From Fimbriimonadales bacterium (GTDB lineage Bacteria; Armatimonadota; Fimbriimonadia; Fimbriimonadales; JABRVX01): a stretch of DNA of 64,000 nt. Of the stretch, positions 1 to 49,037 are shown piece after piece. Both the position numbers and the translations under genes were made by a program. Every line of letters starts with the position of its first letter. The first letter of the stretch is position 1. The DNA lies in NCBI GenBank assembly GCA_045862955.1, contig BTVI01000011.1, positions 3,187 to 67,186 on the forward strand, in the 5' to 3' direction. The notes under the pieces were generated by a model. That model made no database searches. It saw only the letters and a program-made list of their open reading frames with translations, and had not been told where the DNA came from.

Positions 1-427
1 CTACTCGTCCATTATGTACCCGTTTCACGGTGTCTGATAGCGGCACGGCGGGCACAACGGCGTCCGCCTCGCATGGAGCCAGCAGGCGGTCCAGAAGCTC
101 GCGCTTGAGGTTTGGACGAGCCGCATCGTGCACGGCTACCCACTCCACGGTGGCAGGGAGTGCGCGTAGTCCGTTCAGGCACGAGCCCTGACGGTCATCT
201 CCGCCGGCCACGATATCGTGCTTCAGCGGGATAGAGGCTGCGGCAGCGGAGAACCGTCCGATCTGCTTCGCCGGCACGACGATCACCATGCCTTCGATGG
301 CGGGATGGTTCGCCAGCGCGAGTGCGCCGTGAATCCATAGTGGTCGCCCCCGAATGCTGGTCCACAGCTTGTCGCCCGTTCTGTTAAAACGAACGCCGCT
401 GCCGCCTGCCAGAAGAACCGCGTGCAT
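1..427 (-). CDS. ispD: IspD (2-C-methyl-D-erythritol 4-phosphate cytidylyltransferase), N-terminal 142 codons, runs off left edge
   Basis: Not in ORF track (no stop in window). Hand translation from ATG 427-425: [22 protein letters not shown]...[11 protein letters not shown]. LAGGxGxRF loop and HDAARP motif are IspD hallmarks. Start overlaps the end of the upstream PIN/TRAM gene. Confidence 0.8.
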
Positions 428-1493
428 CGTAGCCGTCTCCCACCTCTTCGCGGTCGGGGGTCGCGAAGATCATCTTGCCGGCGACCGTCTGGATGACGGA
501 GGTGACGCACACCTGAAGCGTGTTTCCGAGTAGCTCCGCCCCACCTTCCACCACGACCATCGTACCATCGTCCAGATAGCCTACGCCCTGGCCGGGTTCC
601 TTGCCCTCGCGCTGAAGCGTGACTGTCATCGTCTCTCCCGGCAACACGTTGGGCTTCATGGCCAGCGCGAGGTCGTTCACGTTCAGCACTCTTACGCCTT
701 CCAGCTCGGCCACCTTGCTTAGGTTGAAATCGTTGGTGACTATATCGCAGTTCATGGCCTTCGCCAGTCTGACGAGCCGGGCGTCGACCTCATCGCCCGC
801 GGGCGGCGCGAGGCGATCTTGCGTGCGCACCTCGACGTCCAGTTCCTTCTGCATCGCTTTCAGGATGTCCAGTCCTCGTCGTCCTCGTGCCCGTCGCAGC
901 GGGTCGGCAGAGTCGGCGATAGCCTGGAGCTCGTCTAGCACGAAGCCGGGGACGTAGATCTGGCCGGAGAGGAAGCCCGTCTTGGCGATCTCGCCGATCC
1001 GGCCATCTATGATCACGTTGGTGTCCAAGATGTGGATGTTGCGGCGCCGCGATGCCGGCTTGCTCGACCAAGGAAGCCCTTCCTTCACGCTGTTCACGCC
1101 CGCAACGACGAGAAAGACGGACACGAGCGTAACCAGCATGGCGAGGAACGGTCCGACGACGCTTATCCTAAGAAGTATGGGATAGAACGCAAGCGAGATG
1201 AGGATGCCGATGGCGATTCCGACGATGGCATTGATCTTCTCCTCGGTCTCCATCTCCTCCATCTGCCGCCCCAGGTAGCTAAGGAAAATGGAGATTTCGG
1301 CGCCGAGGATTGCGCCCGCCAAAGCTCCGACCATTGTCAAGCCGGAATGCACGGTCCAGGTGCGGTAGCTTTCCATCTCCTCTGCCGGCACCCGGAGCGA
1401 GCGAGCTAATGCCATCAGGGCGTCCGTGCCGTACGTCCAAGCGAGGATGCCGCCTGCAAGCATGCAGGTGACGACGAGAAACATGCGTATCAC
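384..1493 (-). CDS. PIN + TRAM domain membrane protein (YacL-like)
   Basis: ORF 384..1493. N-terminal hydrophobic helices, then [12 protein letters not shown]...[10 protein letters not shown] (PIN) and a C-terminal TRAM-like beta region. GTG at 1493 or ATG at 1484 as start. Confidence 0.75.
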
Positions 1494-1588
1494 GCGCAGT
1501 ACGTCTATGCTTCCCTCTCCTCTAACACGGTGGTTGCGAGAGACGCATTGTTAGACCGACCTGCGTCTCCGATGTCTCGTAGGAGCGC

Positions 1589-1998
1589 TCACGACTCCTC
1601 AGATACTCTGAGTCGATTCTCGGCGCGCTCCATTGCAGCGCGATACTCCTTCGCCTTCGGATCCCCGGCGGGAAGCTGAGCCAATCGCTCACGCGCCTCA
1701 TTCAAGGCCACCCGCGCCCGGTCGGGGTCGATCTCCGAGGCGATCTCCGCAGTGTCGGCAAGCACGATGGCACGGTTGCCATCCACCTGCATGAAACCGC
1801 CGCCGACGGCCATCCGGACCGACACGCCATCTGCCCGTGTGTACGTCAAGCGCCCGATCTTCAGTTCCGTCATCAGCGGGACGTGCCCAGCCATCACTCC
1901 GAGGTAGCCGTCTCGTCCCGGTGCGACCAGCGACACGCATGGTTCGTCTGCCACTGTCCGTTCGGGAGTCACGATCGAGAGACGAAAGGTGGTTGCCA

Positions 1999-1999
<1 letters not shown>
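1589..1999 (-). CDS. atpC: F-type ATP synthase epsilon subunit
   Basis: MATTFRLSIVTPERTV...GYLGVMAGHVPLMTEL. ATG at 1999 overlaps the atpD stop by 1 nt (TAATG). The longer ORF start at 2056 lies inside atpD. Confidence 0.9.
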
Positions 2000-4102
<2,103 letters not shown>

Positions 4103-34796: not shown

Positions 34797-35046
34797 GACT
34801 GCTAACCCTCAAATGAACTCATCATGCAGCGTGGAATCCCTGATCCCAATCGTTACCATTATGCTACGGCGAGCAGTCCTTCGCTACTCGAAATACCGAT
34901 TCCTGCGCGATAGGAGCAGGTTGCTGCGAGATCCGGGGCCCGGATGCATGATACCCTATGGGGATTGAGCGATATTTCACAAAGGCCCCAATGCCCGGCG
35001 ACGCCCTTGCGTGATAATGCACAATGCTGGAGGAGCGTGTTGTCCG

Positions 35047-36444
35047 ATGCCTGCTTGTTCACCATCCTTCAGCCTCACCGTTCGATTGCGTATTCCGAAT
35101 GCACCCGGGATGTTTGCCCGTGTCGCCGACGCCATCGGTGGTGCGGGGGCGGCACTGGGCTCCATCGACCTACTATCCGCCAATCACACCCACAAGGTGC
35201 GGGAGGTAGACGTCCTGGCAAGGAGCGAGGAACACCAGCAGGAGGTCCTGGACGCCATCGCACGAGTCGAGGGTGTGGAAGTGCTCGAGGTGCACGACCG
35301 AACCACCCGAGTGCACGTCGGCGGCAAGCTGGAAGAGCATCCCCGGTATGCCTGCAAGACCTACGACGACCTTTCCATGCTCTACACGCCCGGCGTCGCT
35401 CGAGTGTGCAAGATGATTAAGGACAGCCCAGCACTGGCGCGGCGATATACCATTCGCGGCAACACCGTGGCCGTCGTAACTGACGGAAGCGCGGTGCTGG
35501 GCCTGGGTAATATCGGCCCGATCGCGGCTCTGCCCGTCATGGAAGGCAAGGCCGTCCTGTTCAAGCAGTTCGCGAACGTGGACGCATTCCCGATCTGTTT
35601 GGATACGCAGGACGTCAACGAGATCGTCGAGACGGTCGAGCGCATCGCCCCGGTCTTCGGAGGCATCAACCTGGAGGACATCTCCGGGCCACGCTGCTTC
35701 GACGTGGAGGAGCGCCTGGCCGAGCGATTGGACATCCCGGTGTTTCACGATGACCAGCACGGAACCGCGATCGTCGTCGTTGCAGCCCTCATCAACTCGC
35801 TGAAGTTGCTTCGTAGGAGGGCAGAGGACCTTCGCGTGGTGGTCGCAGGTGCTGGTGCTGCCGGGACGGCCGTGAGCGCGCTGCTCCTCGAAGCGGGCGT
35901 TCGCGACCTAACCGTCGTGGATGTGACCGGTATCCTACACCCGGACGACATGCAGGGCGCGCACCCGAAGCGCAGGTGGCTTGCGCAGGTTACGAACCCG
36001 CGAAGAATTCGCGGAAGCCTGGAGGATGCGGTTCGGGGTGCCGACATGTTTGTCGGTGTCGCAGCCCCGAACATTCTGTCGCTCGATGCCCTGCGGAGCA
36101 TGGCCCCCGACCCGATCGTCTTCGCGATGGCCAACCCAGACCCCGAGATCCTGCCAGAGCTTGCTCAACAGTACGCCGCGATTGTCGCGACGGGCCGGTC
36201 GGATTATCCGAATCAGATCAACAATGTCTTGTGCTTTCCGGGTCTTTTCCGGGGCCTGCTCGATTGCGGGGCGAGGCGCGTGACGATGGGAATGAAGCTA
36301 GCTGCCGCACGTGCGATCGCCTCTACGGTCTCTGACGAGCAGCTCTCGGAGGATTTCATCGTGCCCAGCGTCTTCAACCCAGCAGTGGCCGAGGCCGTGG
36401 CCCGGGCGGTGGCGGCAAACTGTGACTCCTGCAGGGGTTCGTAA
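35047..36444 (+). CDS. ACT-domain NAD(P)-malic enzyme, paralog 1
   Basis: N-terminal ACT-like SFSLTVRLRIPNAPGMFARVADAIGG, then LSMLYTPGVARVC...[21 protein letters not shown]...[17 protein letters not shown] 35047 after GGAGGAG. Confidence 0.9.
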   Translation: MPACSPSFSLTVRLRIPNAPGMFARVADAIGGAGAALGSIDLLSANHTHKVREVDVLARSEEHQQEVLDAIARVEGVEVLEVHDRTTRVHVGGKLEEHPRYACKTYDDLSMLYTPGVARVCKMIKDSPALARRYTIRGNTVAVVTDGSAVLGLGNIGPIAALPVMEGKAVLFKQFANVDAFPICLDTQDVNEIVETVERIAPVFGGINLEDISGPRCFDVEERLAERLDIPVFHDDQHGTAIVVVAALINSLKLLRRRAEDLRVVVAGAGAAGTAVSALLLEAGVRDLTVVDVTGILHPDDMQGAHPKRRWLAQVTNPRRIRGSLEDAVRGADMFVGVAAPNILSLDALRSMAPDPIVFAMANPDPEILPELAQQYAAIVATGRSDYPNQINNVLCFPGLFRGLLDCGARRVTMGMKLAAARAIASTVSDEQLSEDFIVPSVFNPAVAEAVARAVAANCDSCRGS

Positions 36445-41733: not shown

Positions 41734-43554
41734 TCAAGCTTCCTGGAGGTATTCCTTGATGCGGCGGGCCATGCTCTCTGTCATCGTAGGTACGGCGGCT
41801 AGCGCCTGAATGGGAGCATCCCTGATCGCCGCAACCGAACCGAAGGTGCGAAGTAGCAGCCTCCTCCTTCTCGGACCCACTCCCGGAATCTCCTCGAGCA
41901 CCGAACCCACCGCCCGCTTTGCCCGCAGCTTCCGGTGATAGCTCAACGCGAACCGGTGCGCCTCGTCCCGGAGCCGACGTAGCAGCATCAAGCCGCGCGA
42001 GTTGGCCGGCAAAGCAAGGGGCTCAGGGTCGCCGGGACGGAAGATGAGTTCCTGTCGTTTGGCCAGACCGACTGCGGGCACAGACAGCTCGACCTCCGAC
42101 ATCGCCTGAAGCGCGGCATTGAGCTGTCCCTTCCCCCCGTCTATCACCATCAGGTCCGGCAGCTTGGCAAACTTCTCGTCGCCCTCGACAGCGGAGCGGA
42201 GCCTGCGCAGAATCACCTCTCGCATCATCGCGAAGTCGTCCGGGCTCTCCGGATTGAAGCGGATTCGGAACCTCCGATACTCGTCTTTCGCGGCCTCGCC
42301 GTTCTCCATCACTACCATGCTTCCCACGGGTACAGTGCCTTGGATGTTCGAGATGTCGTAACACTCGATCCGCATGGGCAGCGTATCCAAACCTAACACT
42401 TCTTGCAGCTCTGTCAGCGCCTGATCCGCCCAGGCCTCTCGTTGCTCCAGGTCGCTGCGGAACTCTGCCAAGGCGAGCTCGGCATTGTTCGCTGCCATCT
42501 CTACGAGCTCTAGCTTCTTCCCACCCCTCGGCACGTTCACCGTCACCGTAGTGCCGCTCTTCTGGCGTAACCACTGCTGAACGATGTTCCGCTCCTCGAT
42601 CTCCACCGGCAACAACACCTCCCGCGGCACCTCAGCAGCGTCGGCATAGAATTGCTTCACGAATTGCTGCACCGCGAGCTCGGGGCTGTCGTCGGGCCCG
42701 GCATCCAAGAAGAAACTCCGCTGGCCCACCAGTTTCCCGGACCGTACGTAGAACATCTGCACGCACGCTCCTCGCTCGTCCTTCACCAAAGCCACGACGT
42801 CTTGGTCGGCATCCGGATCCCCCAGGACCTTCTGCCTTTGCATCACCGCCTCGATGCTCGCCAGCTTGTCGCGAAGCGAGGCCGCACGCTCGAACTCCAT
42901 GGCCTCCGCAGCTTCCTCCATCTCGCGGCGTATGCGTTGGGACAGTTCCTCCTGACGCCCTTCCAAGAACAGGATCACGTTTCGGATCACATCACGGTAC
43001 CGCCGCCGATCCGATAGCCCGGCACACGGGCCGAGGCACTGCCCGAGGTGGTAGTACAGACAAGGTCGCTGCTCCTTCTTGTTCGTCCACACTTTCTGGC
43101 ATGGGATGAGTGGAAAGAGCTTGTGTAGAAGGCGAACCGTGTCCCTGACGGCGTAGGCACTGCTGAACGGGCCGAAGTAGCGCGTGCCCCCCTTCTTGCG
43201 GAGCCTCGTGAACATCACGCGAGGGAAGGGCTCGCCGAGCGTGACCGCGATGTACGGGTAGGACTTGTCGTCCCGCAAGCGCACGTTGAATGGCGGCCTG
43301 TAGCGCTTGATCAGGTTGCACTCCAGCACAAGCGCCTCTAGCTCGGTGTCCGTTACGAAAGTCTCCAGGTCCGCGACGCGGGACACCAACCGCGCCACCT
43401 TCAGCGAGTGCCTGGCCGACTTCTGGAAGTAGGAGCGGACTCTCGAGCGCAACGACACGGCTTTGCCCACGTAGAGCACCTCGCCGTCCGCGCCGCGAAA
43501 GAGATAGCAGCCCGGCTTATTGGGCAAAGCCTTCAGCTTGGCGGCTAGCTCCAT
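41734..43554 (-). CDS. uvrC: Excinuclease ABC subunit C
   Basis: MELAAKLKALPNKPGCYLFRGADGEVLYVGKAVSLRSRVRSY (GIY-YIG), UVR domain, C-terminal (HhH)2. ATG 43554 rather than track start 43737. Confidence 0.95.
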   Translation of the reverse strand: MELAAKLKALPNKPGCYLFRGADGEVLYVGKAVSLRSRVRSYFQKSARHSLKVARLVSRVADLETFVTDTELEALVLECNLIKRYRPPFNVRLRDDKSYPYIAVTLGEPFPRVMFTRLRKKGGTRYFGPFSSAYAVRDTVRLLHKLFPLIPCQKVWTNKKEQRPCLYYHLGQCLGPCAGLSDRRRYRDVIRNVILFLEGRQEELSQRIRREMEEAAEAMEFERAASLRDKLASIEAVMQRQKVLGDPDADQDVVALVKDERGACVQMFYVRSGKLVGQRSFFLDAGPDDSPELAVQQFVKQFYADAAEVPREVLLPVEIEERNIVQQWLRQKSGTTVTVNVPRGGKKLELVEMAANNAELALAEFRSDLEQREAWADQALTELQEVLGLDTLPMRIECYDISNIQGTVPVGSMVVMENGEAAKDEYRRFRIRFNPESPDDFAMMREVILRRLRSAVEGDEKFAKLPDLMVIDGGKGQLNAALQAMSEVELSVPAVGLAKRQELIFRPGDPEPLALPANSRGLMLLRRLRDEAHRFALSYHRKLRAKRAVGSVLEEIPGVGPRRRRLLLRTFGSVAAIRDAPIQALAAVPTMTESMARRIKEYLQEA

Positions 43555-43752
43555 GCTCCTCTCACCGTTCCTAGGGTAACGCAGATTCGTGAGAACAGAC
43601 GCGGCAGGAGGCAGCGGAATCGCTCGTGCAAAGTTTCGCCGAGTGACCAGAAATATGGCCGGTGCGCACCAATCTTGTGACGCCAAGCGCGGACTCTCGT
43701 GCAATTCGCTTGCCGTTTGGGGCAGAATCGGGCCCAAGGAGCGACAGTCAGA

Positions 43753-45141
43753 ATGATCACTACAGGTTCACCGTCCTATAGTTTAACCCTTCGGATACGA
43801 CTTCCGAACCGCCCGGGGTCGTTCGCGTTGGTGGCGGAGGCCATCGGGTCTACCGGCGCCGTCCTTGGCTCGATCGACCTAGTATCCGCCGACCGCAACA
43901 ACAAGGTACGGGACGTCGTAGTCCTCGCGAGCAGCGAAGAGCACGAACAGAAGGTGGTGGCGGCAGTCAAGGCCGTGCCTGGAGTGAAGGTCCTGCACGT
44001 GCACGACCGCACCACCCAAGTGCACATCGGCGGCAAGCTAGAAATCCACTCGAAGCGGCCCCTTCGCAATTATGACGACCTCTCCATGGTGTACACCCCT
44101 GGGGTCGCACGCATCTGCAAGATGACCGAAAAGGACCCCGCTGCGATGCGACAGCTCACGATCAAGGGAAACTCGGTCGCTGTGGTCACCGACGGCACGG
44201 CGGTCCTGGGCCTTGGGGATATCGGCCCATGTGGTGCCATGCCGGTGATGGAGGGCAAGGCGGTCCTGTTCAAGGAGTTCGGAAACGTGGACGCCTATCC
44301 CATCTGCCTCGCGACCAAGGACGTGGACGAGATCGTCAGGACGGTGGTGAACATCTCGCCCGGTTTCGGCGGCATCAACCTCGAGGACATCTCTGCACCT
44401 CGCTGCTTCGATGTGGAAGAGCGCCTTATCAAGGAGTGTGACATTCCGATCTTCCACGACGATCAGCACGGAACTGCAGTGGTTGTACTGGCCGCGCTTC
44501 TGAACGCTCTGAAGGTGGTGGGCAAGTCCATCTCCGAACTGCGAATCGCGGTCGCCGGAGCTGGCGCATCGGGCACTGCGGTCACATCGCTGCTGATCGA
44601 CGCCGGAGTGAAGGACATCGTGTGCGTTGGACGAACCGGCATCCTTCATCCCGACGAAGTCAAGGATGCGCATCCGAAGCGGCGCTGGTTGGCCGAAGTG
44701 ACCAACCCGAGGCGTATCAAGGGCAGCCTTGCCGATGCGGTACGTGGGGCGAACATGTTTATCGGGCTGGCCCAGGCAGGGCTTCTCACTGTGGACATGC
44801 TGAAGACGATGGCACCGGAGCCGATCATCTTCGCCATGTCGAACCCAGTGCCGGAGATCATGCCGGAAGAGGCCGCACCCTATGCACGCATCATCGCGAC
44901 GGGCCGGTCCGACTATCCCAACCAGATCAACAACGTTTTGTGCTTCCCCGGGTTCTTCCGAGGAATGCTGGATTGCGGCGCGCGCAAGGTGACGACCGAG
45001 ATGAAACTCGCGGCCGCGCACGCCATCGCCAACAGCATCCCGGAGGACCACCTATCGGAGGAGCTCATCATCCCGAGCGTGTTCAACAAGCACGTGGGGC
45101 GGGACGTTGCTCGCGCAGTCGCATCGGTTGCTTGCGAATAG
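43753..45141 (+). CDS. ACT-domain NAD(P)-malic enzyme, paralog 2
   Basis: [33 protein letters not shown]... collinear with paralog 1. AGGAG RBS before ATG 43753. Confidence 0.9.
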
Positions 45142-45142
45142 C

Positions 45143-46831
45143 TTAGGCGCCCGACACCGAGGGCAACCCGCAGTCGCGACGCCTATCCCGACCCGAACTC
45201 GCTACCGCCGACGGAGCAGCCATTGCTAGCAACGAAAGCACCGTAAGCAGAGAGGGCTCGGGCACTAGCGTCGAGAGCCACAGGTTGTAGCGGTAGCTGC
45301 CTCCTGCATACTCCTTGTAGAGCCAAAGCACGTCGCCCAGTTCGTTGGTCGCCCATGCCTCGGGGACGGGGGCGTTCGGGATGCCCGCATCCGCCGAGAG
45401 GTTGAGCGAGCCTACGGACAAGCCGCTCTGCAGGCTTCCGTACCCATACCACAGCGGTGACTCGCCTGCAAAGCCGAAGGCATACGCCAACCTGCCACTC
45501 CCGAGCAGCCCCGCCGAGAGGTTCTCTGGCTCCCGAGGGTCCGGCGGGTAACGCGTCCCGAAGTAGATGTTCCCGTCCTTGCCCATGGCTCTCGAGATCA
45601 GGTCGGTGCGGTGGATCGCCCGTCGGCGGTCACCGTCCCACAACTCCCACAGCTCGGTGCCGTTGGTGTCGAGCGCGTGGGTGTAAGCCCCTTCCTGTGT
45701 CATGACCATGGCCAGGAAGGTGCCCTGCGGATTGAACGCGAGGCAGGCTGTAGCGTCCACGTTCGTGATTTCCGTGCCCGGGTCGCGTTCCGACTCGAAC
45801 ATCATCGCGGAGGCGCCAGGCGGGCCCCACGCCTTGACGAAAGCGCCGCGGTACGGCGTACCGCTCGCACCAGTGTCCGAAGTAGACGCTGCCGTCCGGC
45901 AATCACCACCGCCGAGCTCTCCACCGGGCCCAGCGGGCCGCCCGTTCACAGAACTCACGAACCACTGCTGCGATGGCGCCTGCCCGTCGTCCCGGACAGC
46001 CCAGAGGGTGCCGCTCTGCGAAACCAGTTGCCCCTGCTCATTCCTTGCGATGTCCCACGTCCCGAAGTACACCATGCCCCCCGCGCCGACACAAGGCGAC
46101 GACATGGCAAGGGAGAAGCCCGGTCCTGCCGTCCCGTCGAAGTCGGGCCGGTAGCGCCACTTGACTTCGGGGTAGTGTACCGGGGACTGCTCACGTCCCG
46201 GATCGCATACAGCGTTCCGCTCTTGGCGTAGGTGGAGTTGTCCAAGTTTCCGGCATGAGCTGTGACGTAGATAGTACCGTCGGGGCCGATCGCGGGGTTG
46301 CCGAGCTCCACGTTGTCCATCCGCGGGGCCTCACCATCATAGGCATCCATGTGCAGCTGACACACCCCGCGCCCGTTACGGTCGAGGGCTAGTAGCAGGC
46401 CGGGAGCCTGCATCCGATTGCCGTCATATACTGGAATGTACAGACACCCATCGCTCCGCACTGCGGGACCGGACTCCGTGAATTACTCGATCTCCCTCGA
46501 TAGGCGCCCTAGGAGCGTGGGTACAGGGACCTTGGCGTCCGAGGTGAGGACGACACCACGCTCGACGGAGTCGGACCAGAGGTGGTAAGGAGGCTGGTAC
46601 TCCCAACGATGGTTCGGCAGTCGCACCCTCCACCGCACTCGGTCACCTGGCCCCGTGATGCCGCTGGGCATCGTCTGTACGGCTTTGGCAGAGTTCATGT
46701 TGTCGTGCGCCCGCCTAGGCCAAGGCGCAAAAGGGGTCGAGCTGCGCGGGGACGCACAGCGGGATCGAAGCGAGGGCTACCCCCCACAGAAGGAGGACGG
46801 ACACCCTGGTCGCCAGGCAACTTTGCTTCAC
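45143..46831 (-). pseudogene. PQQ-like beta-propeller PEP-CTERM protein, disrupted three times
   Basis: GTG 46831 gives signal peptide VKQSCLATRVSVLLLWGVALASIPLCVPAQ, and that frame stops at 46715. The next frame (..WPRRAHDNMNSAKA..VRWRV..) has an in-frame TAA at 46483-46485. A further frame change occurs near the G4 run at 46182-46185 (..SGTLYAIRD / PEVKWRYRPDFDG..). C-terminus VPEPSLLTVLSLLAMAAP...GRDRRR is a PEP-CTERM signal. Confidence 0.6.
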
Positions 46832-46954
46832 GGCGCCAGCCTCGTACACTGTGCCCACCTGCGGCGACCGCCGAGGCGGGTGGATACTTCGCTGGGTATT
46901 CTATCAGTGCCGCATCGGTCTGTCCAGCCCTTCGGCTAGCTAACAATGCATGAT

Positions 46955-47017
46955 GTGTTCAACTAGCACGTGGGACGAGACGTAGCGCACGCAGTCGCAT
47001 GGGTCGCCTGTGGGTAG
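46955..47017 (+). pseudogene. Displaced copy of the last 21 codons of the malic-enzyme gene
   Basis: Gap-free hand alignment to 45079-45141 (extended 1 nt past the stop) gives 52/64 identical positions, same frame and same TAG position: VFN*HVGRDVAHAVAWVACG* vs [20 protein letters not shown]. Contains an internal TAG. Confidence 0.7.
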
Positions 47018-47074
47018 CCGCGGTCGTAGCCTATTACGTAGTGTCCTGCCGGTCCGAGGTACGGCGCATGCAAA

Positions 47075-47100
47075 GGGCCCTCGCGCTAGCGCGAGGGCCC
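47075..47100. terminator. Perfect 26-bp palindrome, bidirectional terminator candidate
   Basis: GGGCCCTCGCGCT|AGCGCGAGGGCCC. Lies 20 nt after the minus-strand stop at 47120 (followed there by TTTGCATG) and 58 nt after the malic-enzyme remnant stop on the plus strand. Confidence 0.6.
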
Positions 47101-47119
47101 GAGTTTCTGGTACGAATAG

Positions 47120-47767
47120 CTATCTTCTTCGGCGACCGCGCACGATGAGTGCGCTCGCGCCCATTAGCAGCATGGCGATCGATCCGGGCTCGGGCACTGC
47201 CTCCAGGAACCGAACTTCCGAGAGGCCCACGTGTCCGGCCGAGTCGCCTCCGCCGTAGTAGCTCATAATGTCGAACTTCACGTAGCGAGTGCCTCGAAGG
47301 GGGGTCTCGAAGCTGATCCGCTGGCCGGTGTAGTCAGCCGTTCCCGTGGCGATGTCGAACACGTGCACGCCGTGACTGATCCACTCCGAACCATCGAGTG
47401 AGGTCAGGATGTCTACGTCCTTCGCCCCACGACCCGTGTAGGAGCCGTTCTGGTTAACATAGTTGAAGTTCCAGACGTGAATCGCGCCGAGGTCGTATAC
47501 GTCGCCAAGATCGAAAGCGATGACGGCGGTGCCCAACCAGGGCTGCGTTTCCCAGTAGTAGGAATCTACGGGGGCATTGGAGTGGCAGGCTGGCTCGACC
47601 GAGGTGTCAAGACCGTTGCCATTGATAATGTTCTCTGCCGGCATCGTGTACCACTCGCTGGAAACGTAATGGATGCTTACACCGGTGATCTCCTGCGCAC
47701 TTACGGCAGTAACACAAGCCAGACTACCTGCCAGGCCGATGAGGAGAGACAAGGTCGCCTTTGTCAT
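47120..47767 (-). CDS. F5/8 type C (discoidin)-like PEP-CTERM protein
   Basis: MTKATLSLLIGLAGSLACVTAVSAQ signal. ...RYVKFDIMSYYGG...GLSEVRF (discoidin-like). C-terminal VPEPGSIAMLLMGASALIVRGRRRR. ATG 47767 rather than track start 48184. Confidence 0.8.
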   Translation of the reverse strand: MTKATLSLLIGLAGSLACVTAVSAQEITGVSIHYVSSEWYTMPAENIINGNGLDTSVEPACHSNAPVDSYYWETQPWLGTAVIAFDLGDVYDLGAIHVWNFNYVNQNGSYTGRGAKDVDILTSLDGSEWISHGVHVFDIATGTADYTGQRISFETPLRGTRYVKFDIMSYYGGGDSAGHVGLSEVRFLEAVPEPGSIAMLLMGASALIVRGRRRR

Positions 47768-47915
47768 GGAGCTATCGCCTCTGATTATCAAAGTGGCGGC
47801 ATACTCCGCCCAGGTCGCGCTGGATCGGAGAACCACTGGGGCGACTGCATGGCGCGTGCCATTCAGGAGGCCGAACCAAGATACGACGGAGCAGACGTCG
47901 TCGAGGGTCCGGGAC

Positions 47916-49037
47916 TCAGAGGTCCAGCAAGTACCCGGCAATCGCCTTCGCACGCTCGGACCAGGAGTTGGCGGCGGCAGCCGCGCGGCGTGCCTCTGCG
48001 CGCTCCGGGTGGGCGAGTTCATCCTCGATTGCTTCGACGAAGCCCTGCGCGTCTGCCGCGACTCGCACCGTGGAGCCAGCCGCTTCAGCGAAGGGAAGCG
48101 GGGTCGTAACCACGCCCTTACCCGCCGCCAGGTACTCGTACAGCTTGAGCGGGGACACGCCCTCGGTGTAAGGGTTGATGCCATAAGGGATTATTCCGAC
48201 ATCCATTGCTGCCACGTACGCGGGTAGCACGTCATACGGGCGGAAGCCCAGGTAGTGCAGATTCGGGGCAGATGGCAGGGCAGTCTCGGCGGTGTCGTCA
48301 CATACTCCCACTTTGCCTACCAGCACGAAGCTCCACGTTGGGCGCAGTCGCGCCAGGTCTGCCAGCAGCGAGAAGTCCACCTTGTAGGCATCCACCGCAC
48401 CCGAGAACCCGACGATAGGACGGGGCAGCTCCGCAAGCTCGTCTGGCACTGGCAGGTCCGTTCGAGCAAAGTGATCGTAGTCCACCCCGTTCGGCACGAG
48501 TAGGTGCCTCGGGTTCAGGTGCTTGCGCTGCTCGAGCAGTTTCGGATTGCTAGCGAACACTGCCACTGCTTCTCGACACAGCCTCTCATCTTCTCGCCTG
48601 CACCCCTCCGGATCTGCGGCATAGAATGGCATGGTCGGATAGTCGTCGATCACTCGATAAGCGAATGGCAGCTCCGGGAAAATCTCACGAAACCGCGCCT
48701 CGTTCGGGCTGAAGATCAGTAGGTACGCAGGCTCCTCCCCCCATAGCCGCTTGGCGGAATCTAGCACGGCACGTCTCATGATCTTTCGCTCCATACTCGC
48801 TGTTAGTGCGACGCGAGCAGGTAGGGAAGGGACATATGTAATTACGGTCAGGTTCTCGCGCGGCGAGCGGCTGTCGGTGCGACCCCATTGCCAGGGTTGC
48901 AGCGTGCGGGCGTTTTGCCTGTCACGGACCTCCACCAGCATCACCCTATGCCCGATAGCAGCGAGAGCTCGTGGTAGTAGCACCGGGTTCGTTGGTATGG
49001 CTGGGTCCGCGTTGCCGACGAAGGAGATGAAGTTCAT
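47916..49037 (-). CDS. Glycosyltransferase (GT-B, family 1/4-like)
   Basis: 373 aa. ...FSGAVDAYKVDFSLL...VLVGK...GIIPY...SPLKLYEYLAAGKGVVTTP. Start abuts the rimM stop. Confidence 0.75.
   Translation of the reverse strand: MNFISFVGNADPAIPTNPVLLPRALAAIGHRVMLVEVRDRQNARTLQPWQWGRTDSRSPRENLTVITYVPSLPARVALTASMERKIMRRAVLDSAKRLWGEEPAYLLIFSPNEARFREIFPELPFAYRVIDDYPTMPFYAADPEGCRREDERLCREAVAVFASNPKLLEQRKHLNPRHLLVPNGVDYDHFARTDLPVPDELAELPRPIVGFSGAVDAYKVDFSLLADLARLRPTWSFVLVGKVGVCDDTAETALPSAPNLHYLGFRPYDVLPAYVAAMDVGIIPYGINPYTEGVSPLKLYEYLAAGKGVVTTPLPFAEAAGSTVRVAADAQGFVEAIEDELAHPERAEARRAAAAANSWSERAKAIAGYLLDL

Follow-up and report, generated by a model that had tools for sequence, protein, structure and literature searches.

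Why does the end of a malic-enzyme gene occur twice in one stretch of DNA, once in place and once stranded about 1.8-1.9 kb 3' of the live gene? The locus lies in a 64,000-nt stretch from a Fimbriimonadales bacterium, referred to here as the window. A preliminary description of the window proposed that incoming DNA had carried its own copy of the 3' end of the gene for malic enzyme paralog 2 (ME2) and had pushed the old end downstream, where it now flanks a dead PEP-CTERM gene. We compared the locus with that of related lineages, labeled W (the window species), A and B (L083 and L085), C (L092 and L138), and D (L097). The region from ME2 to the neighbouring glycosyltransferase gene contains the following features, in which P and F denote the two versions of the interval set out further below.

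43753-45141, plus strand: ME2, intact, 462 aa counted from its ATG, with the Pfam domains malic and Malic_M
45079-45142, plus strand: left, functional copy of the repeat, which covers the final 20 codons of ME2, its stop and 1 nt more, and aligns collinearly with the tails of the gene in A, B and C
45143-45201, no strand: spacer, native to the P version, that separates the stop of ME2 from the ancestral one (45202-45204) of a convergent PEP-CTERM gene
45202-45530, minus strand: 3' part of the gene for an NxS..LLG-repeat PEP-CTERM protein, with the last repeat and a VPEPS-hydrophobic-RRR tail
45531-46858, minus strand: gene for a BamB/PQQ_2-type beta-propeller with a signal peptide, truncated by ~20 codons at its 3' end, where it is fused with the repeat-gene part
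46859-46954, minus strand: propeller upstream region, containing a promoter-like site whose -35 is at 46926 and whose -10 ends at 46898
46954-46955, no strand: the only novel joint, which links the DNA upstream of the propeller gene to ME2 codon -20; the other junctions of the interval are each present in some relative
46955-47018, plus strand: right copy of the repeat, an ME2 3' end, stranded and dead, which is followed by the downstream DNA native to it, as judged from lineage C
47019-47119, no strand: DNA that natively follows ME2 in the F version, with a 26-nt perfect palindrome at 47075-47100
47120-47767, minus strand: intact gene (215 aa) for a PEP-CTERM protein with an F5/8 type C (discoidin) domain, matching Pfam F5_F8_type_C and PEP-CTERM
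47768-47915, no strand: F5/8 upstream region, homologous to lineage C up to 47892
47916-49037, minus strand: glycosyltransferase gene, the stop of which bounds the F5/8 upstream region

The exact ME2 protein was found on 3 contigs, and its amino-acid identity to lineages A and B is 97%. A GTG at 43699 is a possible alternative start. Scanning GTDB genomes with ME2 returned mainly generic malic-enzyme patterns, with a best match of 59% identity and no close relative, and in L088, a more distant relative, UvrC is not followed by ME2.

In a gap-free alignment, 45079-45142 and 46955-47018, the two copies of the ME2 3' end, agree at 52 of 64 positions and share both reading frame and stop position, in agreement with the initial reading of the letters. 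BLASTN within the window recovered the match at E = 4.4e-12. The runner-up among ungapped 64-nt matches on either strand of the window reached 35/64, and all 300 shuffled queries fell below the real score, with a maximum of 37/64. The internal TAG ascribed to the downstream copy is present (AAG->TAG), giving the translation VFN*HVGRDVAHAVAWVACG*. In addition to this stop, the right copy carries 2-3 amino-acid replacements relative to the tail of any lineage, and R/K->H and S->W distinguish it from the tails of all of them. The longest identical runs between the left and right copies are just 9-11 nt. Weaker similarity had also been described for a further 30-60 nt upstream, and this extension does not hold: ungapped identity there is 13/30 and 19/60, and homology to the relative with the empty site starts exactly at 46955. 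Malic enzyme paralog 1 was considered as the source of the fragment and ruled out, as its tail is unrelated and paralog 2 is closer.

Comparison with the relatives showed that each flank of the duplication has a native counterpart. In lineage C, ME2 directly abuts the conserved hairpin and the F5/8 gene with nothing between them, so the expectation that a relative lacking the insert would join its malic-enzyme gene directly to the hairpin at 47075 was borne out. Positions 2-2114 of L092 correspond to window positions 43031-45143, and positions 2050-2402 to 46955-47309; these two alignments overlap precisely over the 64-65 nt of the repeat. L138 continues the lineage C match across the whole F5/8 gene to 47892, and the right copy and the DNA downstream of it are collinear with this lineage. 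A and B are collinear with the window from 25046 or 41307, past the ME2 stop and into the 3' end of the PEP-CTERM gene, such that the window, A and B all have the ME2 stop joined to the PEP-CTERM gene in the same way, at ~82-84% nucleotide identity. The displaced-end account is partly supported: a true duplication flanks a block that is absent in C, but the supposed fresh insertion joint at the ME2 stop is shared with A and B.

In lineage D, the propeller gene and its upstream region, the latter partly kept to about 46879, lie beside the glycosyltransferase gene, with neither fragment nor hairpin nor F5/8 gene. The same three elements are absent from B, in which the P cargo adjoins the glycosyltransferase gene. 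A strict insertion is contradicted by D, which has the propeller gene without the duplicated fragment, an outcome that the preliminary description had itself named as counting against its reading, and B lacks the fragment as well. Within a thin sampling of relatives, the P cargo genes turned up only at the ME2 locus (lineages A, B and D) and, in L189, in a chromosomal tandem.

The DNA between the copies had been described as a single PQQ-like PEP-CTERM pseudogene with its upstream region. Both pseudogene and upstream region are present, but the pseudogene is a chimera of two genes. A deletion has fused the propeller gene with the repeat PEP-CTERM gene next to it; in L189 these two genes lie in tandem. 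The propeller gene of the window contains at least 4 frameshifts and one in-frame stop, and tblastn with proteins P0191 and P0192 matched 46783-45542 with frame changes -3/-1/-3 and a stop. The reconstructed pseudogene protein matched neither Pfam PQQ_2 (PF13360) nor PEP-CTERM nor TIGR02595 in HMM searches, and the PQQ_2 assignment of the propeller part was made through its intact homologues and tblastn: the intact homologue P0192 scores 40.2 bits on PF13360 (cut-off 27.6), and P0191 scores 25.0 bits.

The repeat-gene part (45202-45530), of which tblastn with P0194 and P0195 covered 45523-45221, is orthologous to the 3' ends found in A and B. VPEPS, a hydrophobic stretch and RRR were seen by eye in the repeat proteins of A and B; in the window an 11-nt deletion near 45214 has inactivated this part and frameshifted the tail. 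The repeat PEP-CTERM protein has just 13 homologues among 1.84 billion representatives. A 167-aa gene in B was considered as a truncated propeller and rejected, as it is the C-terminal part of the repeat protein. The spacer at 45143-45201 is homologous to the spacer in A and B, with equal spacing, and contains no strong hairpin (z = -0.67).

On the other side of the right copy, the region at 47019-47119 matches lineage C at 66 of 91 positions, with the stem of the hairpin kept and the loop changed. The palindrome at 47075-47100 is perfect, as had been noted, with 13+13 nt folding into an 11-bp GC stem at about -26 to -30 kcal/mol. The terminator role assigned to it is less secure. Because the hairpin has just three U on either side and a scan for the terminator consensus made no call, we regard it only as a candidate terminator that would act in both directions, on ME2 and on the F5/8 gene. 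The F5/8 protein shares 89% amino-acid identity with that of lineage C and scores 23.8 bits on PF07589 (cut-off 20.7) and 21.4 bits on TIGR02595 (cut-off 16). A search with a concatenated F5/8 and glycosyltransferase query returned glycosyltransferases only, with F5/8 orthologues absent, even the window's own. The nearest outgroup glycosyltransferase (60% identity) lies in an unrelated context and gives no polarity for the versions of the islet.

Based on these arrangements, we consider it likely that the interval between ME2 and the glycosyltransferase gene exists in two alternative versions, and that the window carries both in tandem, connected through one illegitimate joint. The P version would comprise ME2, the spacer, the repeat PEP-CTERM gene and the beta-propeller gene; the F version would comprise ME2, 54 nt, the hairpin and the F5/8 PEP-CTERM gene. 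Both were pieced together from partial contigs, with that of A ending before the far side of the cargo and that of C before the DNA past F5/8. Each version would natively begin at the ME2 end. In the window species, DNA of one version would have been joined to that of the other, with the end of the propeller upstream region ligated to codon -20 of the F version's ME2 copy and the other side settled by ordinary homologous recombination in a flanking conserved gene.

For the joint itself, we infer homology-facilitated illegitimate recombination (HFIR) or an equivalent unequal exchange. The locus displays the hallmark of HFIR, a single novel non-homologous joint with the other side in homologous DNA. 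The joint at 46954|46955 is seen in the window species only, in at least three independent assemblies. Its flanks (…GCATGAT|GTGTTC… vs …CCCGAGC|GTGTTC…) have no clear shared run when present-day sequences stand in for the pre-event partners. The ME2 end attached to P would then serve the working gene, and the end attached to F would be the stranded one, which has decayed; the P cargo has decayed as well. On this reading, the 64-nt fragment is a scar without function, left by a single illegitimate joint. Whether F was resident and P arrived, or P was resident and F arrived with the fragment hitch-hiking, is about equally balanced. The direction of displacement first proposed fits, but its mirror image, with the fragment, hairpin and F5/8 gene incoming, fits equally well.

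A close parallel for such a joint is found in Rhs/CDI orphan tips and the T6SS arrays of Vibrio cholerae, which combine a homology anchor on one side with an illegitimate joint on the other and involve no integrase (PMC5361080). As at ME2, a previous 3' region is moved downstream as an orphan without an integrase. The Rhs and T6SS cases, however, concern polymorphic toxin tips that come with immunity genes, evolve under diversifying selection and are often displaced serially, whereas the ME2 locus reflects a single event on a conserved metabolic-enzyme tail with no selective logic for the tail and with the two directions of displacement graded about equal. No toxin tip with a cognate immunity gene is present at the locus, where the cargo consists of PEP-CTERM surface-protein genes.

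The two copies were probably already different when they were joined, since 8 of their 12 differences are at third codon positions and the fragment is equidistant from the W, A and C tails (51/63 each). The third-position bias fits coding-sequence evolution in separate genomes. The pattern of divergence along the locus is a mosaic: W-A identity at 4-fold sites is 82% in the cargo vs 52-57% in ME2 and UvrC (p = 0.002), and W-C identity is 65% in F5/8 vs 48-49% (p = 0.003). As W-B silent-site identity ranges from 43% to 68% between neighbouring genes, these contrasts are weak evidence that the lineages may exchange DNA at this locus, and no basis for a direction of transfer. At 6 of 8 informative sites the left ME2 tail sides with C (post hoc p = 0.02), counter to the A/B likeness expected from the two-version model. 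The cargo adjoining this tail is A-like, and the combination requires a second exchange.

One reading of this pattern, which we regard as doubtful, is that the 64-nt tail of ME2 serves as a portable anchor for integrase-free cassette exchange, perhaps along with the final ~11 codons of the glycosyltransferase gene on the opposite side. Alternative surface-protein cargoes, bordered by the coding 3' ends of these two conserved genes, would be excised and re-inserted among Fimbriimonadales lineages by general homologous recombination alone. If true, this would explain an A-like cargo beside a C-like tail, as well as a cargo much younger than its flanks.

The timing of the event allows a different order, in which the composite arrangement is ancestral, C lost the P cargo via the 64-nt repeats, and B and D separately lost the fragment, hairpin and F5/8 gene. 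This alternative differs on timing, and the composite would still be born from the joint at 46954|46955. Sliding-window analysis of UvrC-ME2 and the informative sites produced a star for the four lineages, with sites split 35/33/36, which is compatible with an ancestral composite. The divergence of the fragment from each tail, which is as great as that between the lineages, is compatible with it too, and a deletion across the direct repeats would produce precisely what is seen in C. However, three independent losses are required. B and D also have an unrelated stretch of 150-300 nt at the F5/8-upstream position beside the glycosyltransferase gene, a spacer not found in W and C, and so are not simple deletion derivatives of the window arrangement. 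Furthermore, the C tail groups with the left copy even at the last codons, leaving almost no room for a crossover. Taken together, we consider an ancestral composite unlikely.

Another possibility is that the 64 nt were copied within this genome, by target-site duplication at a staggered break or by tandem duplication with deletion, giving two copies that were identical at first and diverged afterwards. No new joint is seen at 45142/45143 or 47018/47019, and target-site duplication is therefore not needed: the stop codon with 14 nt and the spacer is native in A and B, and the stop codon with 54 nt and the hairpin is native in C. The repeat is direct, with its right end 1 nt beyond the stop codon, as such a duplication could leave it, and its 12 differences are only marginally more than the ~7 that we estimate from the divergence of the cargo. 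Parsimony on the 63 nt gave a best tree of 33 steps vs 35 and did not place the fragment; a tree with the copies as sisters costs only 2 extra steps, but no site unites the two copies against all other tails. The block ends carry no terminal inverted repeats, and no transposase was found, a difference from transposable elements that adds to the native state of the junctions flanking the repeat. We view duplication in situ as very unlikely.

Site-specific integration of the e14/icd type would place an attachment site in the last 63 nt of ME2, with a replacement 3' end brought in and the integrase later deleted along with most of the element, so that the PEP-CTERM cargo alone was left. Direct repeats of the gene's 3' end do flank the block, lineage C has an empty site, and the differences between copies are mostly synonymous, like those of icd/icdC (PMC13626634). 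For icd/icdC of E. coli K-12, at the attachment site of e14 (and phage 21), deleting the DNA between the two ends gives back one chimeric gene (PMC13626634, citing Hill et al. 1989). In both cases a housekeeping gene is kept working by a substitute 3' end from the DNA on its right, a C-terminal fragment pseudogene is stranded beyond the intervening block, and the two ends differ chiefly by conservative or synonymous changes. In contrast to e14, a 15-kb prophage that has a site-specific recombinase and is excised upon SOS induction, the ME2 block consists of decayed chromosomal PEP-CTERM genes over 1.8 kb, without a recombinase and with its cargo at the same locus in relatives.

Searches of the locus also argue against integration. 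The open reading frames between the repeats match no Pfam family and include no integrase, recombinase or transposase; the gene calls around the locus include no integrase, excisionase, phage or conjugation gene; and a tRNA gene scan found none within 20 kb of the block. The absence of an integrase, noted at the outset, is thereby confirmed, and nothing at the locus points to the integrative element whose logic had been invoked. The suggested comparison of composition likewise gave no signal, with 63-67% GC in the block vs 60-64% in the flanks. The cargo is of chromosomal type: lineages A, B and D have it at this very locus, and L189 has its genes in tandem. D has it without the repeat, and the identical runs of 9-11 nt are the longest that the copies offer. 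The locus resembles tRNA/tmRNA genomic islands in that direct repeats of a target 3' end flank a variable block with an empty site in relatives, but the target is protein-coding, and the missing integrase, neighbouring tRNA gene and compositional signature set it apart. Integration of this kind is highly improbable. Chance similarity or an assembly artefact, for which only the short length of the repeat speaks, can be dismissed given E = 4e-12 against chance maxima of 35-37/64, a frame and stop codon kept in both copies, and the identical structure and joint in independent assemblies of other samples (L082, L093, L094).

The scar at the ME2 tail is real and of an ordinary, known kind, comparable to e14 icd/icdC and to orphan Rhs and T6SS tips. 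It calls for no new mechanism and adds one further instance of gene-tail displacement, a clean and datable example in the poorly studied Armatimonadota/Fimbriimonadia. The locus is a small variable islet of exosortase-sorted surface-protein genes, probably reshuffled between related lineages by homologous and illegitimate recombination, without mobile-element machinery. For annotation, the 64-nt copy should be recorded as a gene fragment or pseudogene and not as an open reading frame, and the neighbouring "PQQ/PEP-CTERM" open reading frames as the remains of two fused genes. Strains differ in the propeller pseudogene by extra indels.

The 3' end of the second malic-enzyme gene (ME2, 43753-45141, +) recurs downstream, as the preliminary description had claimed, at 52 of 64 positions without gaps and with an identical frame and stop position in both copies. 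The two copies and the decayed genes (cargo) between them are as follows.

45079-45142, +: left repeat copy; last 20 ME2 codons, stop codon and one base
46955-47018, +: right repeat copy (the fragment); ungapped match to 45079-45142
46783-45542, -: propeller part of the cargo; matches the BamB/PQQ_2-type beta-propeller proteins P0191 and P0192
45523-45221, -: repeat-protein part of the cargo; matches the last repeat and PEP-CTERM tail of P0194 and P0195

BLASTN of the repeat against the window gave E = 4.4e-12; the runner-up 64-nt match on either strand reached 35/64, and the maximum from 300 shuffled queries was 37. The weaker similarity proposed for the 30-60 nt upstream is not real, identity there being only 13/30 and 19/60, and homology of the right copy with relatives begins exactly at 46955. 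Paralog 1 (35011-36444) was ruled out as the source of the fragment, as its tail is unrelated. The fragment translates as VFN*HVGRDVAHAVAWVACG*, whereas the working ME2 tail has no internal stop; with this stop codon and radical replacements it has no visible function, and its invariance among strains is due solely to their being 99% identical. Eight of the 12 differences between the copies (63 coding positions) fall at third codon positions, an excess that fits tails which had diverged before the joining.

The intervening sequence had been described as a PQQ-like PEP-CTERM pseudogene. It is dead, but it is not a single gene: two adjacent genes were fused by deletion. P0191 and P0192 (the latter scoring 40.2 bits on PF13360) end without any PEP-CTERM tail, while P0194 and P0195 belong to a distinct and rare family of NxS..LLG-repeat PEP-CTERM proteins for which a set of 1.84 billion representative proteins contains just 13 homologues. 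In L189, a locus from a further organism, a propeller gene and a repeat gene stand in tandem and look intact (1-3000), which indicates that a deletion fused both genes in the window's lineage. The fusion (45202-46858, -) carries at least four frame changes and one in-frame stop codon, and its sorting tail has lost 11 nt. Its decay is still ongoing: between strains it shows more substitutions than neighbouring genes, plus four indels. The largest, in strains L082, L093 and L094, removes ~133-144 nt relative to window 46709-46849 and spans the propeller signal-peptide region, the BLAST breakpoints overlapping by 11 nt; the others are of 1 nt at 45901, 1 nt at 45938 and 3 nt at 45684. A 167-aa "remnant" in lineage B was considered as a propeller and rejected, being the C-terminal part of the repeat protein.

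The nearest named relatives are Fimbriimonadia/Fimbriimonadales MAGs, and the loci compared were these.

Lineage W: the window and its strains, ~99% identical to each other
Lineage A: L083, ~83.6% nucleotide identity to W
Lineage B: L085-L087, ~82% nucleotide identity to W, 20 kb collinear
Lineage C: L092 and L138, two independent assemblies, mutually 99.5% identical
Lineage D: L097/L098, this locus rearranged
L189: further organism with intact-looking cargo homologues

In lineage C, the synteny check suggested earlier found ME2 followed by 54 nt, a hairpin and a convergent F5/8-type PEP-CTERM gene, with nothing between. L092 2-2114 aligns to window 43031-45143 and L092 2050-2402 to 46955-47309, and what these alignments share is the repeat itself; L138 is collinear across the entire F5/8 gene, up to window 47892. 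The right copy, hairpin and F5/8 gene thus form a single native block, as had been predicted. The hairpin had been called a perfect palindromic terminator. The 26-nt palindrome (47075-47100) is indeed perfect and forms a GC stem of 11 bp, kept in lineage C with the loop changed from CTAG to CTGA; the terminator function is putative, given three U per side and the lack of a call here in a consensus terminator scan. The mechanical F5/8 ORF (47120-48184, -; 354 aa) overlaps the glycosyltransferase gene (47916-49037, -); the actual gene begins at 47767 and encodes 215 aa with a signal peptide, and this shorter form is conserved in lineage C.

In lineages A and B, collinearity with the window extends from well upstream across the ME2 stop codon and the spacer into the PEP-CTERM gene's 3' end, with equal stop-to-gene spacing in W, A and B. 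The left junction, common to A and B, is therefore not new. In B and D the cargo adjoins the glycosyltransferase gene without the malic-enzyme fragment, hairpin or F5/8 gene, in place of which there is a 150-300 nt spacer absent from W and C; lineage D still has the DNA upstream of the propeller gene. In lineage B, the interval from the PEP-CTERM remnant to the glycosyltransferase gene (L085 20650-20770) contains a direct repeat, GGCGTCCCGCCGGA, on either side of a GC-rich, hairpin-like insert, perhaps a small element of the REP/MITE type.

On the favoured reading, the DNA from ME2 to the glycosyltransferase gene comes in two alternative versions, and the window's locus is a tandem composite of both. 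The P version would comprise the spacer, repeat PEP-CTERM gene and propeller gene, and the F version the 54 nt, hairpin and F5/8 PEP-CTERM gene, each natively starting at the ME2 end. Only the 46954/46955 joint, where the propeller upstream region meets ME2 codon -20, is non-native; every other junction in the composite belongs natively to one of the two versions. A single illegitimate joint, with homologous recombination in the conserved flank on the other side, would be enough. The process would then be homology-facilitated illegitimate recombination, which has been put forward to explain Rhs and T6SS displacement arrays (PMC5361080).

Two directions, about equally likely, would produce this composite. 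In one, that of the preliminary description, P-version DNA bringing its own ME2 end entered a genome that had the F version; in the other, an F block with the fragment at its head entered a genome that had the P version. For W, A, B and C the ME2/UvrC tree is a star (informative sites 35/33/36), the fragment matches the W, A and C tails equally well (51/63 each), and parsimony on its 63 nt (33 vs 35 steps) does not place it. Between W and A the cargo has 13/182 differences and 82% four-fold identity, though a pseudogene in W, against 52-57% for ME2 and UvrC (p = 0.002); between W and C, F5/8 reaches 65%, compared with 48-49% in ME2 and UvrC (p = 0.003). Both contrasts are weak evidence, because neighbouring W-B genes (25046-49037 vs L085) span 43% to 68%: ME1 68%, PFOR 62%, ME2 58%, UvrC 52%, melibiase 43% and an 859-aa protein 43%. 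This spread suggests pervasive recombination among lineages or strong codon-bias differences. The left ME2 tail groups with C at 6/8 informative sites (post hoc p = 0.02), and the cargo, just 15 nt further on, resembles A, an arrangement that neither direction predicts without a second exchange. Over 45142-45383 (spacer and PEP-CTERM 3' part) W and A (L083) show 19/227 differences, far more similar than adjacent ME2 silent sites (57% four-fold identity); the ME2 tail is the most divergent W-A piece (13/63). W and A form a mosaic here, with similar spacer and cargo beside a divergent tail.

Other origins fare less well than the tandem composite. The scar is of a true displacement type with an empty-site relative, lineage C, and to this extent the earlier reading stands; a simple insertion does not. 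Lineage D has the PQQ gene without the duplicated fragment, the very observation named beforehand as contradicting strict insertion. Nothing indicates an integrative element: as noted earlier, there is no integrase in or near the block, nor are there transposase, phage, conjugation or tRNA genes, and the block has no terminal inverted repeats. Its GC content, a composition check also proposed, is 63-67% against 60-64% in the flanks. Among stranded gene tails, the nearest formal parallel is e14 icd/icdC (PMC13626634), whose defining recombinase and mobility are both absent at the ME2 locus. Cassette exchange without an integrase, using the coding 3' ends of the flanking genes as anchors, is, in our judgement, improbable. 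Both flanking junctions are already native, which makes a target-site duplication or copying in situ unnecessary as well as unlikely. An assembly artefact is ruled out by L082, L093 and L094, independent assemblies from other samples (~99% identical) with the identical joint.

The last ~11 glycosyltransferase codons of the window (...AKAIAGYLLDL*) are unlike those of B and D (...ITRYLRQR*-like; 47916-47950, L085 20780-20830, L097), and nucleotide homology resumes only at 47950; the variable stretch may therefore reach into this 3' end too. The malic-enzyme paralogs (35011-36444 and 43753-45141) are 67% identical and 7 kb apart. Both occur in W and B, and the corresponding neighbourhood of the more distant L088 contains paralog 1 alone. 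The ME2 N-terminus gives weak ACT-domain matches.
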